The notes beneath the pieces were generated by a model. It was not told the origin of the DNA. It ran no database searches and worked only from the letters and a program-made list of their open reading frames with translations. Source: Chthoniobacteraceae bacterium (GTDB lineage: Bacteria; Verrucomicrobiota; Verrucomicrobiia; Chthoniobacterales; Chthoniobacteraceae). From it: a DNA stretch of 44,826 bases. Every line of letters starts with the position of its first letter. The stretch's first letter is position 1. Positions 5,933 through 20,506 of this stretch are shown here, in pieces. The stretch lies in assembly GCA_031409335.1 (NCBI GenBank), contig JANNWY010000310.1, forward strand, positions 1-44,826, written 5' to 3'. The translations under genes and the position numbers were made by a program.

Positions 5933-7109
5933 ATGCGGACCCTGCCCCTCAAGCCCAATCACAAGCGAGTTGCCGCCTACCATGCCTCGCTCGCCGACTT
6001 TGCCAAGCTCGGCGTGAAGCACGAGACCGCCGTCTGCGCCGCGTTTCAGGCGTTGCTGGAAGACTGCACCTCGCTCGTCAACAAAGGCCGGGCCGACAAG
6101 TGGAAGCTCGTCCCCGAGTATTCGCTGAAGACCAAAGCGGGCGCGAAAATCACGCCCGACGGCGCGCTGCTCGACAGCTTCCGCCTCATGCACGGCCTGT
6201 GGGAGGCGAAAGACACCGCCGACGACCTCGACAAGGAGATCACGAAGAAATTCAAGCTCGGCTACCCGCGCGACAACATTCTCTTCCAGTCGCCCACCCG
6301 CGCTGTGCTCGTGCAGGATGGCGCGCGCGCTCGATCTCGACATCACCAAGCCGGACAACCTCGTCACCGTTCTCAAAGGCTTCTTCGAGTATCAGGCCCC
6401 GGCCTTCGACGAGTGGGAGAAGGCCGTCGCCGACTTCAAGGACCGGCTCCCGGAGATCGGCAAGCAGATGACCGACATCGTCCGCGCCGAGAAGAAGGTG
6501 AACAAAAAGTTCGCCGAGGCTTTCGACGGTTTCGTCGCTCTCTGCCAGCAAGCGCTCAATCCGCACCTGCGGGTGGAAGCCGTCGAGGAAATGCTCATCC
6601 AGCACATCCTCACCGAGCGCATCTTCCGCAAGATTTTCGACGTGGGCGAGTTCATGCAGCGCAACAACATCGCCGCCGAGATCGAGAAGGTTGTCATCGC
6701 CTTGACCAGCCGCTCCTTTTCACGCGATAAGTTCCTCAAGGAACTCGACCGCTTCTACGTCGCCATCGAAGACGTCGCCGACACCATCCCGGACTTTTCC
6801 GAGAAGCAGAAGTTCCTCAACACGGTCTATGAGCAGTTCTTCCAGGGCTTCGCGGTCGAGCGCGCGGATACCCTCGGCATCGTCTATACCCCGCAAGAGA
6901 TTGTCGATTTCATGCTCGCGAGCGTGGAGGAGGTTTTGAAGTCGGAGTTTGGCCGCGCGCTCGGCGATCCCGGCGTCCACGTCATCGATCCCTTCGTCGG
7001 CACCGGCAACTTCATGGTCAATCTCATCCGCCGTCTGCCGAAGACGCGGCTGGAGCACAAATACCGGCACGAGCTGCGCTCTGGCGTAGAGCTTGCATTG
7101 AGTAGCTGA
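5933..7109 (+). pseudogene. type ISP/IIG-like restriction-modification enzyme, N-terminal part (frameshifted and truncated)
   Basis: PD..EAK nuclease (ITPDGALLD..WEAKD) in one frame; GIVYTPQEIVDF and SAM-binding IDPFVGTGNF in another; frameshift at (GC)5 6321-6330; resemblance ends after KYRHEL (~7076); no NPPY motif. Confidence 0.85.
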
Positions 7110-7133
7110 ACCCTCGAACAGTAGCGAAAACCG

Positions 7134-7790
7134 ATGATTGAAGCCGTCGTCCAACTATTCTCGATCACGCTGGAAGCCTTTTTTCCGCGGCCAAAGCCCT
7201 TTGCGAAGGACAAGATCGATCAAATCGCGGAGTGGCTCACAGATTCTACCGACGGCTTTGCACTGCGGCCCGACCAAGTGCGCGTTCGGCACACCGACAT
7301 CATCTTCGACTACGTGTTGAGCGCGAGTTTCTATGGCGGTAACGCGACGTTTCTCCGCGATGCAGAAAAGGCGGTGCTCTTCGCACGAGGAGCGAGGACA
7401 CGGCAGGATGCCGATTTGCTTCGCGGAGCAGCAATGCGGTTTGCTCGATTCGCCGCATCGGAGGAGAAACTTCCGCTGATGTTTTCTGCAAACGCCCACG
7501 CATCATTACCAACAACTGACCATCGAGAGCAGTTCCTCAAAGGGCTCCGGCCTGATCCACGGGTGACTAGCCCGGGAGCCTTGGGTTACGTCCAGCTTGA
7601 TGGATGGCCAGACGCGGTTCGTGTCGCCATTGAGCCGTCGTTCAATGCGCCTCAGAGTCTGTTTTTTTCGTGGCAAACCAACTTGGGCGCGTCGGAAGAC
7701 TGGCAGAGCACTTTTGAAACGCTCGTTGGCGTTATCGAAGAAGCTACGACAGTGTATGGCGTCCAGTTCTCACCCCTCGCAGAATCATGA
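7134..7790 (+). CDS. uncharacterised 218-aa protein, homologue of 19099-19758
   Basis: clean ORF; ATGA overlap with the next gene; aligns without gaps to the protein at 19099-19758. Confidence 0.8.
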   Translation: MIEAVVQLFSITLEAFFPRPKPFAKDKIDQIAEWLTDSTDGFALRPDQVRVRHTDIIFDYVLSASFYGGNATFLRDAEKAVLFARGARTRQDADLLRGAAMRFARFAASEEKLPLMFSANAHASLPTTDHREQFLKGLRPDPRVTSPGALGYVQLDGWPDAVRVAIEPSFNAPQSLFFSWQTNLGASEDWQSTFETLVGVIEEATTVYGVQFSPLAES

Positions 7791-8086
7791 ATACTGTATT
7801 TCGCCAACCATCGATCCGAGAACAGCGCACTCTTGGTGGATCAGTTTATTCGCTTCACCAAGCTGGAAGCGGAGATCGTAGCATCAATATTGGCATTCGT
7901 TTGTGGACTGCTCCGATACCATTCAACTCGCAGGGACATTTTGCTCCGGTGGCGAGTGAAGAGCTGTTGAAGAATCGGCAACCTGCGATCCTACAAGTCC
8001 AGACTCGTAGGCGGAAACTTCCCGTGGTTAAGGCGACAGGGAGACCCATCGTGCAAGCTGAGATAGACGATGCCTTCGACGACTGA
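7787..8086 (+). CDS. putative antitoxin with atypical N-terminal extension
   Basis: overlaps both neighbours; C-terminus KLPVVKATGRPIVQAEIDDAFDD resembles VapB toxin-binding tails. Confidence 0.6.
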   Translation: MNTVFRQPSIREQRTLGGSVYSLHQAGSGDRSINIGIRLWTAPIPFNSQGHFAPVASEELLKNRQPAILQVQTRRRKLPVVKATGRPIVQAEIDDAFDD

Positions 8087-8513
8087 AGCGTTACTCGATG
8101 TGAACGTCCTCATCGCGTCGGTTTTCGAGGACCACATGCATCACGCACGCGCCCGGACCTTCGTCGAAGGGCTCGAACATTTCTACACATGTCCCACCAC
8201 GCAGGGTGGCTTCCTTCGGTTTGCAACTCGACCTTGGAAGGACGCCGAGAAAGTCCCGCAACCGCCTCGGCTGAGCATGTCAGCCGCGCATGCAAGACTG
8301 AAAGAGTTGGTTGAGGCAGATGGGCACGTTTTCCTTCCCGACGATCTGTCATTCGTTGATTTGTCGCTGCGTTCAATGCAGGGACATCTCCAGTGGACGG
8401 ATGCTTACCTCTTGAAACTCGCGAGCCGTCACAGTTTGCGCTTTGCATCGATCGAGAGTCGGATGGCGAACCTCGATGATCCAACTTCTCCCGCTCTCGT
8501 TGTCGTTCCATAG
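8070..8513 (+). CDS. vapC: PIN-domain VapC family ribonuclease toxin
   Basis: LLDVNVLIA, HMHHARAR, CPTTQGGFLR, WTDAYLLKLA. Confidence 0.88.
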   Translation: MPSTTEALLDVNVLIASVFEDHMHHARARTFVEGLEHFYTCPTTQGGFLRFATRPWKDAEKVPQPPRLSMSAAHARLKELVEADGHVFLPDDLSFVDLSLRSMQGHLQWTDAYLLKLASRHSLRFASIESRMANLDDPTSPALVVVP

Positions 8514-8520
8514 GCGCGCC

Positions 8521-8682
8521 ATCCCGCTCTCGACGCTGGTGCGGTTCCAGAATCACTACGGCGACGAGGCGATCACCAAGTGGGACATCTTCCACTACGT
8601 CTATGCGGTGCTGCATCACCCGGAGTATCGCACCCGCTACGTTGCCAACCTCCGCCGCGAACTCCCGCGCATTCCGATGGTC
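8521..8682 (+). pseudogene. C-terminal specificity-domain remnant of the type ISP-like RM enzyme
   Basis: HYGDEAITKWDIFHYVYAVLHHPEYRTRYVANLRRELPRIP is the characteristic type ISP C-terminal motif; no start codon. Confidence 0.82.
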
Positions 8683-8698
8683 GCTCCCGGCCCATCCT

Positions 8699-8788
8699 CG
8701 GTCCCAAACTCCGTTTGGGACCGCAAGAAGGGGCGAAACTCTGTTTCGCAGCGGCTGGGCTCCGCGCCACAGGCAACGGAGTTGACCC
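8699..8788. repeat. REP-like multi-hairpin element
   Basis: cggtcccaaac-tcc-gtttgggaccg (8699-8723), gcgaaac-tct-gtttcgc (8733-8749), degenerate ggcaac-gga-gttg (~8772-8787). Confidence 0.7.
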
Positions 8789-8816
8789 ACGATTCCCTTC
8801 GCCTATTGAACTACCA

Positions 8817-9743
8817 ATGCCAATCCCTCCCTATAACGAAATCAAAGCGCCCGCACTCGCCTTCTTTGCCGATGGCAATCCTCATCGCATTAAAGAGGTG
8901 TTCGAGGTTTTAGCACCAATCTTTCATTTAACCGAGGATGACTTGAACGAATTGGTCCCCAGCGGCGTTCAGCTTCGCTGGAATGCCCGAGCGAGTTGGG
9001 CCTGTTCTGACCTCTATCGTGCGGGATTGCTGACGCAGTTGAAAAAGGGTCTTTACCAGATCACGGACCAAGGGAAGGCAGTCGCGGCGCAGAAGCCTGC
9101 CGTGATCGATCGCGCTTTTCTAATGCAGTTTGAACCGTTCAGAAAGTTCGTGTCCGATAGGAAATCGAGTGGCAGTGATCCCGCCAATGCGAAAGAAACT
9201 CGGCTGCAAGCGCCTGAAGAAGAAGGCACCCCCGAAGAACGAATCGAGGCTGCATACATGGAGCTGAGCGGAACACTGGTGGCGGATCTGCTGGCGAGAC
9301 TGGGGACGGTGAATCCCTTTCGCTTTGAACAAGTCGTTCTCGATCTGCTCGTAGCCATGGGATACGGCGGATCGCGGAAAGAAGCAGCCGCCGTAACACA
9401 GAAGACCGGCGACGAAGGAATCGACGGGGTGATCAACGAGGACCGGTTGGGCCTCGATGTGATTTATGTCCAGGCGAAGCGATGGAAGTCGAACGTCGGA
9501 CGTCCCGAGATTCAGAACTTCGTCGGCGCGCTGGCAGGGAAGAAGGCAGCCAAAGGCGTCTTCATCACGACGAGTGCATTTCACGACAACGCGCGTGAAT
9601 ACGCAGCAGGACTCCACCAGAAAGTCATCCTGATCGACGGTCAACGGCTCGCAGAGCTGATGATCGAACATGGGATCGGCGTCGCCGAGGAACACGCCTA
9701 CCACGTCAAAAAGATCGACAGCGACTATTTCGAGGAGAGCTGA
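8817..9743 (+). CDS. mrr: Mrr modification-dependent restriction endonuclease
   Basis: Mrr N-terminal domain (MPIPPYNEI..LVPSG..RWNARASWA), TPEERIE, FEQVVLDLLVAMGYG, DEGIDG, YVQAKRW. Confidence 0.92.
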   Translation: MPIPPYNEIKAPALAFFADGNPHRIKEVFEVLAPIFHLTEDDLNELVPSGVQLRWNARASWACSDLYRAGLLTQLKKGLYQITDQGKAVAAQKPAVIDRAFLMQFEPFRKFVSDRKSSGSDPANAKETRLQAPEEEGTPEERIEAAYMELSGTLVADLLARLGTVNPFRFEQVVLDLLVAMGYGGSRKEAAAVTQKTGDEGIDGVINEDRLGLDVIYVQAKRWKSNVGRPEIQNFVGALAGKKAAKGVFITTSAFHDNAREYAAGLHQKVILIDGQRLAELMIEHGIGVAEEHAYHVKKIDSDYFEES

Positions 9744-18948: not shown

Positions 18949-19098
18949 GATGAGGCCCCGTAGCGAGCAGCCTCCATTCCGCGATTCTAGTAATTATGGA
19001 AATAGAAATTTCACACCTTCGCCTTCCGCGAGAATCACCCCCTCAATTCAGACCATCACCACGATTCAGGCCCGCGCGCCGCGCGGGCGGACCGACCG

Positions 19099-19758
19099 TC
19101 AGACCTTTTCCTTAAACGGCTCGAAGCCTAGCTCGAAAAGATTCGCCGCGTTTTCCATCATCGTCGGCAGCGACCCGAGAAACGAATCCCACTCCTGGCT
19201 GTTGTGAAACTGCGTGTCCCAGCCGCAGAAGACGGCGTCCGGCACCACGTTCGACGGCTCGATGAGAACGCGGATTTCCTTTTCCCAATCGAAGATCCGC
19301 ACGTAACCCAGCGCAGCCGCTTTCGTGACCAGCGCATTGTGCGAAAACTGGCTGATCCACTGATCGCGCTCCTCGACCGACGGAAAGCGCGCGTGGACGT
19401 GCGCGGCGAGCGTGGTCACGGTTTTCGGATTGAAATCCATGATCGTGTAAAAATGCGTGAGCGCCTGCAGGATGATGCTCCAATCGCCCGCGGTGCGCGC
19501 GTTGCGGATGCCGAGTTTCACGCGATCGGCGGTGCGCGTGAGCGTGCCATTGTCGCCGAAGAAACTGGCGTGCATTTCGTAGCCGAAAAGGTCATCCCAG
19601 CGTTTCATGCGAATCTGGTCCGGGCGCAGATTGATGCCGTGGACGCTGTCGCAAAGCTGCGCGCCAAACTCTTCCAGCCGCGCCTGGGAAAAGCCGAGCG
19701 GCGTGAGGAACGGCACATCGATATGCACGCCGAAGACTTCGATGGGGATGATTTCCAT
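19099..19758 (-). CDS. uncharacterised 219-aa protein, homologue of 7134-7790
   Basis: ATG at 19758 gives a protein colinear with 7134-7790 (shared LRPDQ, ASF.G.N, ART..D, ALGYV, RV.IEPS). Confidence 0.82.
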   Translation of the reverse strand: MEIIPIEVFGVHIDVPFLTPLGFSQARLEEFGAQLCDSVHGINLRPDQIRMKRWDDLFGYEMHASFFGDNGTLTRTADRVKLGIRNARTAGDWSIILQALTHFYTIMDFNPKTVTTLAAHVHARFPSVEERDQWISQFSHNALVTKAAALGYVRIFDWEKEIRVLIEPSNVVPDAVFCGWDTQFHNSQEWDSFLGSLPTMMENAANLFELGFEPFKEKV

Positions 19759-19858
19759 GAGCCGGGAAACTAGGCAGGCGGGAGCCGCGTTGGCACGCGG
19801 AATCTGCAAACCCTGCCGATGGCGCGTCCCGCTTGCCATGGCAACACAAGGCATCCGC

Positions 19859-20506
19859 TCACCACGCGATCTCATCGTTTCCATTCATCCGCTGCCAGTT
19901 ATTCCACGCCAGCATTCCGAAGAACATTCCATTGAAAGTCATCCGCTGGGATATCAGGATGACGCAGGCCGCGATCGCGCAGCACAGGCTGATCCAGAGC
20001 GCAGTCCGCTCCAGTCGCGGCCCGCACATTGCGTGAAAAATCCGGCCGCCGTCCAATGGCAGCACCGGTAGCAGGTTCACCAGCGCCCAGATCAGATTGA
20101 TCCACATCACCATCCAGATCGCGTCCCATGCGAATGGCCTTTTCTGGGTGAACTCCCAGAATATTCCCTGCTGATCCATCCACCATAACGGCGCGCCGAT
20201 GAGTAACTGGAACAACGGTCCGGCCAAGCTCACCACCACGTCCTGACCGCGCGTCAACTCATGCCGACTTAGCGGCGCCGCGTAACCGCCCATGGCATAA
20301 AGGACGATCTCCGACTCGATCCCAAACCTTCGAAAGGCAAAGGCATGTCCCAGTTCGTGCCATAGGATGGAAAGAAATAGGATACTTATCCACAGTGCCA
20401 GCCGCAACGGATCGCCGGACATGGAACCCCAACCCAGCACAAGGCTCACGATCCAAAATGATGGCTGCAACGTGACGCTAAAACGGAAAAGGGAGAACGA
20501 GAGCAT
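19859..20506 (-). CDS. site-2 protease (peptidase M50)
   Basis: LWHELGH, SLAGP, NLLPVLPLDGG; several TM segments. Confidence 0.9.
   Translation of the reverse strand: MLSFSLFRFSVTLQPSFWIVSLVLGWGSMSGDPLRLALWISILFLSILWHELGHAFAFRRFGIESEIVLYAMGGYAAPLSRHELTRGQDVVVSLAGPLFQLLIGAPLWWMDQQGIFWEFTQKRPFAWDAIWMVMWINLIWALVNLLPVLPLDGGRIFHAMCGPRLERTALWISLCCAIAACVILISQRMTFNGMFFGMLAWNNWQRMNGNDEIAW

Follow-up and report, generated by a model that had tools for sequence, protein, structure and literature searches.

The gene at 19099..19758 (minus strand) of the window, that is, of the whole analyzed stretch of 44,826 nucleotides, is a real, selection-maintained, single-copy resident gene of its host lineage. 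Its product is an acidic protein of 219 amino acids (pI 5.2), assigned from its open reading frame, its homologs, Ka/Ks values and an AlphaFold2 model. A paralog of 218 amino acids with 31% identity is encoded at 7134..7790 (plus strand), where it is the first of three genes in a mobile unit that also codes for an antitoxin-like protein and a VapC-type toxin. This cassette protein is likely a new third component of VapBC modules. Our preferred reading of the pair, held tentatively, is that the paralog of the resident single-copy gene heads the mobile unit as the protein partner of the antitoxin.

The solo gene lies in a minus-strand open reading frame at 19099-19884. The Met codon at 19758, which gives the 219-aa product, is the start common to the listed solo orthologs, mostly of 219-220 aa. 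A preliminary description of this DNA had aligned the product by hand to that of 7134-7790, without gaps and with about 68/218 identities (31%). BLASTP bears this out with a significant alignment (67/213 identities, 31%; 110/213 positives, 52%; 0 gaps; 128 bits; E 2e-41), in which the previously noted motifs LRPDQ.R, ART..D, ALGYV, IEPS and W.T are present. These are the only two family copies in the whole 7.9-Mb assembly. The solo gene had also been described as host-like in codon usage and free of toxin neighbors, and both statements hold. The GC3 of the frame 19099-19884 is 0.77, against a median of 0.76 over 39 window ORFs (crudely called, with a few spurious frames included), and the neighboring genes code for an M50 peptidase, an RCC1-repeat protein, a 3-keto-disaccharide hydrolase and a T2SSE ATPase. 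A G+C-rich hairpin with an 8-bp stem, a 3-nt loop and no T run, read from the sequence at 19070..19088 (minus strand), lies 11 nt past the solo stop codon. It was not reported by a consensus terminator scan around the gene, a promoter scan around the gene gave no sigma-70-type site, and no RNA holder was listed among 12 runs.

When the solo protein was used as a query, 262 homologs were found; among the 120 listed, identities are 63-98% and most proteins have 219-220 aa. In the Chthoniobacterales family to which the window belongs, the protein family occurs in 99/151 genomes, usually in one copy, and in 46 of the 73 high-quality genomes and 15 of the 29 genera. Genera that have the gene carry it almost universally (27/29 genomes in g218, 26/30 in g222 and 4/4 in g220). 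Of 401 genomes sampled evenly across the phylum, only the window's own (G000) was matched (0/400 others), and in an earlier sample none of 16 genomes from the 15 other families of the order carries a family member. Comparison with three same-genus orthologs gave Ka/Ks values of 0.08, 0.14 and 0.23. Thus, the resident status of the solo copy follows from its single copy, clade-wide presence, purifying selection, host-like composition and placement in one clade of the family tree.

Some relatives have two solo-type copies. One genome (G002) holds copies that are 87% and 65% identical to that of the window (L015 and L018). Another (G484) gave three matches: one has the coordinates of the cassette-type locus L054 (534-1187) and is apparently that locus, and at least one other (L061) is of the solo type. 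Duplication therefore occurs within the resident clade. In two other loci, L064 (G483:C44) and L065 (G499:C30), the solo-type gene is frameshifted into two tblastn pieces, and these split genes are either pseudogenes or assembly errors.

The window neighbors of the solo gene are not kept beside its orthologs. Across 38 orthologous solo loci (the solo gene itself was called in 37), the only recurrent neighbors are a gene for a 110-aa DUF4404 protein and a Pyr_redox_2 gene. The former is located directly upstream on the same strand in 10/38 loci (L014, L015, L028, L029, L032, L034, L035, L042, L047 and L050) and in one more with an intervening ORF; the latter is upstream in 8/38 loci and downstream in one. 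The DUF4404 gene is often itself preceded by Pyr_redox_2, and its product appears helical by eye. In the window's own genome, DUF4404 is encoded on another contig, and neither gene is found beside the solo gene. The uncharacterized DUF4404 protein, on which we found no literature, may be a functional partner of the resident copy. Within the genus, the solo locus is a rearrangement-prone spot; in one same-genus relative, a reverse-transcriptase gene (RVT_1; L015 1258-2691, G002:C463) lies directly downstream of the solo ortholog. Toxin partners were absent from this type of locus: none of 43 solo-type loci (256 kb in total) holds a relative of any antitoxin-like or PIN partner.

The three cassette genes (7134-7790, 7787-8086 and 8070-8513) are co-oriented and overlap at both junctions, the stop codon of the 218-aa gene overlapping the start of the 99-aa gene (ATGA). 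The gene at 8070..8513 (plus strand) codes for a 147-aa VapC-type PIN toxin, which matches Pfam PIN with E 1.2e-7 and scores 81.8 bits with NCBIfam TIGR00028, 'TA system VapC family ribonuclease toxin' (cut-off 73.6 bits). The family protein of the cassette has 29 homologs. GC3 values are 0.60 for the 218-aa gene, 0.47 for the 99-aa gene and 0.61 for the PIN gene, and these three and an adjacent Mrr gene have the four lowest GC3 values of the window (0.47-0.61). Ka/Ks values against the closely similar locus L054 are 0.10, 0.23 and 0.02, respectively, and indicate purifying selection on all three genes.

The middle gene, at 7787..8086 (plus strand), codes for a basic protein (pI 10.4) of 99 aa that is predicted to be disordered; it is considered antitoxin-like from its position, its disorder and a shared C-terminal motif. 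The AlphaFold2 model of the protein alone has a pLDDT of 62 and is ordered only in a C-terminal helix (residues 90-98). No match was found in Pfam, NCBIfam, PADLOC or PHROGs, and no recognized antitoxin domain (RHH, AbrB or Phd); a search of the ESM Atlas gave nothing useful. Its 16 homologs, of 76-103 aa, are about as rare as cassette-type family members, and six of them equal cassette-type matches in the size of their longest contig, which suggests that the two share contigs. Three linear motifs are conserved in the protein (residues 1-21, 50-66 and 78-99). Part of it, and only part, recurs in nine smaller proteins, of which seven have 62 aa, one has 91 aa and one has 110 aa; in the six that were read at the sequence level, this part is the last motif. 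It has the form LPxVxATGRxI(T/V)QxEIDDAxD in the 99-aa protein and in the small proteins of 62 and 91 aa. The first two motifs are absent from the 62-aa proteins that have the C-terminal motif.

In the small proteins (P0348-P0355, 62 aa; P0347, 91 aa; P0350, 110 aa), which come from other metagenomes, the C-terminal motif is joined to differing N-terminal parts, either short and, judged by eye, helical or weakly RHH-like; the 91-aa relative (P0347) has weak VapB/RHH-like matches. Judged by their sequences, these proteins would exemplify modular antitoxins. We infer an antitoxin role for the 99-aa protein, in which the C-terminal motif would be the toxin-neutralizing and presumably PIN-binding part, and the first two motifs would have been added only in the three-gene form.

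The gene order of the cassette recurs. In the window and in L054, L055, L026 and L056, the family member is followed by the 99-aa gene and then directly by the PIN gene, and in L062 by a 103-aa homolog of the 99-aa protein and then a PIN gene. Retrieval by alignment gave three loci of the cassette clade and two of a more distant type represented by P0153. In one of the latter (L069), an overlapping 112-aa gene comes after the family member, and then a PIN-like gene of 154 aa, whose PIN match is below threshold (Pfam PIN_3 E 0.067; hhalign E 0.0027, probability 11%) and is otherwise called from acidic motifs read by eye; in the other (L068), the sequence ends inside the 112-aa gene. The order is therefore seen in 7/7 loci of the clade with enough downstream DNA, one PIN assignment (L069) being sub-threshold. 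Gene boundaries overlap in the window and in the four other loci in which ORFs were read (L054, L062, L068 and L069). No conserved operator-like sequence was found upstream of six cassette loci. A distant member of the P0181 type (L063 4965-6726; G532:C582) is followed by overlapping genes of 222 aa and 139 aa that have no Pfam or NCBIfam match and include no recognizable toxin, and this set suggests that the family may accompany more than one kind of module. In the same locus, 0.6 kb further and on the other strand, are a gene of 158 aa that is PIN-like by eye and a 66-aa partner, with no family match.

Comparison with L054 points to horizontal movement of the cassette. Positions 6602-8537 of the window are 91% identical to L054 at the nucleotide level, whereas the flanking housekeeping genes of L054 are only 78% and 71% identical to those of the window's genome. 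Divergence inside the block is uneven. Between window 7134-8513 and L054 534-1913, the 218-aa and 99-aa genes both have a Ks of 0.45, as compared with 0.13 for the PIN gene, whose proteins are 99% identical; this suggests either that recombination took place within the cassette or that the toxin gene is very strongly constrained.

The cassette is located inside a broken restriction-modification gene of the Type IIL/ISP-like kind. The 5' remnant, identified by Pfam and PDB matches at 5936..7109 (plus strand) in two reading frames, contains ISP_coupler and the start of N6_Mtase at 6318-7106, and its segment 5936-6727 matches residues 12-121 of an adenine-specific DNA methyltransferase (PDB 7lo5_A, E 1.5e-19). 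The 3' remnant is at 8533..8682 (plus strand), where residues 31-80 of the frame 8443-8910 match residues 830-879 of 7lo5_A (E 1.7e-15) and also LlaGI (E 1.5e-5). The former abuts the three-gene unit and the latter lies just past it. Since the remnants correspond to residues 12-121 and 830-879 of 7lo5_A, the cassette has taken the place of several hundred residues, the rest of the methyltransferase. In L026 and L054, too, an ISP-like fragment lies in front of the cassette, but not in L055, L056 or L062. In L026 it is in frame with the family member and gives a protein of 346 aa (P0128), whose N-terminal extension is thus a restriction-modification remnant. The window frame 8443-8910 and the Type_ISP_C piece of L026 have no similarity; they cover different parts of the domain. 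Directly after the cassette, at 8580-9743, is a gene for an Mrr-type restriction endonuclease (Mrr_N and Mrr_cat; GC3 0.60), which probably belongs to the same acquired island; homology to L054 stops at 8537, short of this gene.

Neither paralog has a match above threshold in Pfam, NCBIfam, PADLOC or PHROGs. For the solo protein, an hmmscan search of Pfam at E up to 0.1 gave only a sub-threshold YbjQ_2 match; for the cassette protein, it gave none. We built a family profile from both subfamilies and searched it against 1.84 billion representative proteins, which yielded 199 clusters at E 1e-3 or better (a small family) and 40 at 1e-30 or better. Near-full-length matches are mostly of 210-225 aa, and no Pfam domain was seen anywhere in ten family proteins that match only partly or are extended at the N terminus. 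Searches of PDB sequences with the profile gave chance-level matches only (best E 0.46), the ESM Atlas returned only unnamed clusters for the solo protein, and a search of viral contigs gave no relative of the cassette protein. We found no literature on the family, which has no name to search by. Gene context covers about 50 loci, and most of the 199 clusters are outside that sample.

An IQ-TREE analysis of 54 family sequences separates the two kinds of loci; the tree is unrooted and fits recruitment from resident to cassette as well as in the opposite direction. The seven toxin-linked loci are found in one clade (SH-aLRT 100, 11 rows) and 16 solo loci in another (SH-aLRT 96, 18 rows), and one change of state is thus enough for each. 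The earlier suggestion of an uncharacterized family with resident and toxin-linked members is therefore supported by the lack of profile matches, by the two clades and by toxin linkage in 7/7 as compared with 0/43 loci.

The positions best kept among 101 family sequences are F9, F17, P20, D55, F58, Y60, F67, D92, H122, G148, R163, E167, S169, F177 and W180. In each of seven polar positions among them (D55, Y60, D92, H122, R163, E167 and S169), the commonest residue accounts for 71-92% of the sequences. Only Y60 and E167 are invariant among 18 deep family representatives, and H122 and S169 are substituted in some members. The family is acidic: the solo protein has a net charge of -10, the pI of the cassette copy is 5.0 and the family median is 5.4.

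The AlphaFold2 model of the solo protein (pLDDT 93.8, pTM 0.87; 35-sequence alignment) is composed of two successive beta-alpha-beta(3-4)-alpha units, whose sequences are not detectably repeats of each other (hhalign E 0.036, probability 1.4%). In a Foldseek search of the PDB, the top matches were TATA-binding proteins (TBP), with E 2e-4 to 1e-3, probability 0.9-1.0 and TM 0.31-0.35. When the top 1000 Foldseek chains were re-scored, the catalytic domains of arginine, creatine and glycocyamine kinases came first (Z 8.0-8.5, rmsd 4.3-5.1), with 168-180 of the 219 solo residues aligned (about 80% of the model) and 22 chains at Z 8 or more; a Z of about 8 is the level that the tool calls possibly a common arrangement. 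The same re-scoring placed McsB at Z 7.6-8.1. A wide search independent of Foldseek gave the McsB kinase domain (Z 7.7), AdoMetDC (7.6) and TBP (7.5; 7.3-7.5 over the two analyses), as well as arginine/taurocyamine kinases (Z 6.4-7.1) and the glutamine-synthetase-like enzymes GS, gamma-GCS, PafA and GatB (Z 4.2-4.8). SecB was not listed as a structural match. A BFVD model of an unnamed 202-aa viral protein, A0A515MGR4 (TM 0.55-0.59, E 1.2e-6), matches the solo model best, ahead of any PDB chain.

The model resembles guanidino kinases and McsB in its predicted antiparallel sheet, with helices on one side and two repeats, but no sequence similarity to them was detected, and the protein is shorter and without their N-terminal helical domain. 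It resembles TBP, its best Foldseek match, in the beta-alpha-beta(3-4)-alpha order of each half, but the TM-scores are only 0.31-0.35, the protein is acidic and its halves have no detectable sequence repeat. We regard the predicted family fold as a sandwich of sheet and helices with two repeats, of the guanidino-kinase/TBP/AdoMetDC kind, neither the kinase nor the TBP match being decisive, and we transfer no function from these matches to the family protein.

To our knowledge, few toxin-antitoxin systems are tripartite, and those known to depend on a chaperone all rely on relatives of SecB. On tripartite VapC systems, we found general reviews only. The cassette is similar in several respects to the toxin-antitoxin-chaperone (TAC) systems with SecB-like chaperones (PMC5105189, PMC6377645). 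Both are three-gene units in which a third protein, acidic in both cases, accompanies a type II toxin-antitoxin pair and has a stand-alone housekeeping relative in the same genome, and in both the antitoxin (a putative one in the cassette) has extra conserved segments that are missing from shorter relatives. There are also differences. The third protein of the cassette is not SecB, as it has no Pfam or NCBIfam match above threshold and is modeled as a double beta-alpha-beta repeat; it is encoded first rather than last, and the toxin is a VapC PIN domain. The TAC antitoxin extension is described as C-terminal (PMC5105189, PMC6377645), whereas the extra segments of the 99-aa protein are N-terminal and central. 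The cassette also resembles ordinary VapBC modules: its PIN toxin is above the TIGR00028 cut-off, the small gene overlaps the toxin start, and the acidic C-terminal motif of the middle gene product is common to antitoxin-sized small proteins. It differs from them in that the middle protein is without a recognized antitoxin domain and the 218-aa gene is translationally coupled in front in all loci seen.

In the preferred reading, the acidic family protein (pI about 5) would bind the N-terminal and central motifs of the basic, disordered antitoxin, and this binding would stabilize or gate the antitoxin, by analogy with SecB-like chaperones in TAC systems. The resident copy would apply this fold, together with the patch of seven conserved polar residues, to a housekeeping client or ligand. 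A partner role is favored by charge complementarity, the fixed gene order, the single toxin-linked clade and the presence of extra motifs in a disordered middle protein. On the other hand, the 99-aa protein matches no antitoxin family, L063 has a different three-gene set, and the PIN match in L069 is sub-threshold. In addition, the protein is without a recognized chaperone fold, its best fold matches are enzyme domains and TBP, and conserved polar residues such as Y60 and E167 would be expected in a catalytic or ligand site more than on a chaperone surface. These last points lead to the main rival, which we judge somewhat unlikely: that the family consists of enzymes or small-ligand sensors with a guanidino-kinase/glutamine-synthetase-like sheet. 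The patch would be the binding site of a nucleotide or other phosphorylated ligand, VapBC would be controlled by the cassette copy enzymatically or by metabolite sensing, and the solo copy would apply the same chemistry to a housekeeping substrate. Enzymatic control has precedents in the modification of antitoxin or toxin in type VII systems and in McsB, which marks proteins for degradation. The ranking of phosphagen-kinase domains first (Z 8.0-8.5), with McsB at 7.6-8.1 and GS, gamma-GCS, PafA and GatB at 4.2-4.8, is consistent with this explanation, as are the 71-92% conservation of the seven patch residues in 101 sequences and the invariance of Y60 and E167 in 18. However, a Z of about 8 may reflect a common arrangement, sequence identity to the kinases is 5-13%, neither paralog matches a Pfam kinase family at E up to 0.1, kinase domains are longer than the protein by 30-40 residues, and H122 and S169 are replaced in some members.

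The TBP matches (Foldseek E 2e-4 to 1e-3; Z about 7.3-7.5) would instead fit a DNA-binding regulator with a TBP-like saddle, an explanation that we regard as quite improbable. Here the product of the first gene would repress the operon, replacing the DNA-binding domain that the antitoxin is missing, and the solo protein would be a transcription factor. Regulator-first operons are known (omega in omega-epsilon-zeta, PaaR in paaR-paaA-parE); the family gene is indeed first, the 99-aa protein is without an RHH/AbrB-type domain, and one relative that has the C-terminal motif has a weak RHH-like N-terminus. Nevertheless, the acidic charge (solo pI 5.2, charge -10; family median 5.4) is the opposite of that of a DNA-binding saddle and disfavors such a role, the TM-scores reach only 0.31-0.35, and six cassette loci have no conserved operator-like sequence upstream. 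It is most improbable, and already largely refuted, that the solo copy is a functionless orphan of a former toxin-antitoxin cassette. Membership in the same family as a mobile cassette gene, neighbors that differ between genera and two relatives with frameshifted copies could be viewed in this way, but selection and clade-wide retention disfavor it: Ka/Ks is 0.08-0.23, the single copy is near-universal in g218 (27/29), g222 (26/30) and g220 (4/4), GC3 is host-like, and most of the 120 listed homologs still have 219-220 aa. Cross-talk between the solo and cassette copies, which had been raised as a possibility, may occur but, at 31% identity, appears unlikely.

In the cassette, the third gene of a VapBC-type module comes from an unannotated family that also has a conserved stand-alone paralog in the same genome. 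A further-reaching proposal, which we consider unlikely as it stands, is that this unnamed guanidino-kinase/TBP-like family provides a second, SecB-independent form of 'antitoxin addiction', in which a Chthoniobacterales housekeeping gene was duplicated and captured by a mobile VapBC module, and its product holds or enzymatically marks a disordered antitoxin via linear motifs. If so, the two-gene module would have become a three-gene switch that could sense stress or phage. The solo/cassette pair is a natural test of how accessory proteins are recruited into toxin-antitoxin or defense modules, and it offers a first functional handle on a family that has no name, solved structure or annotation.
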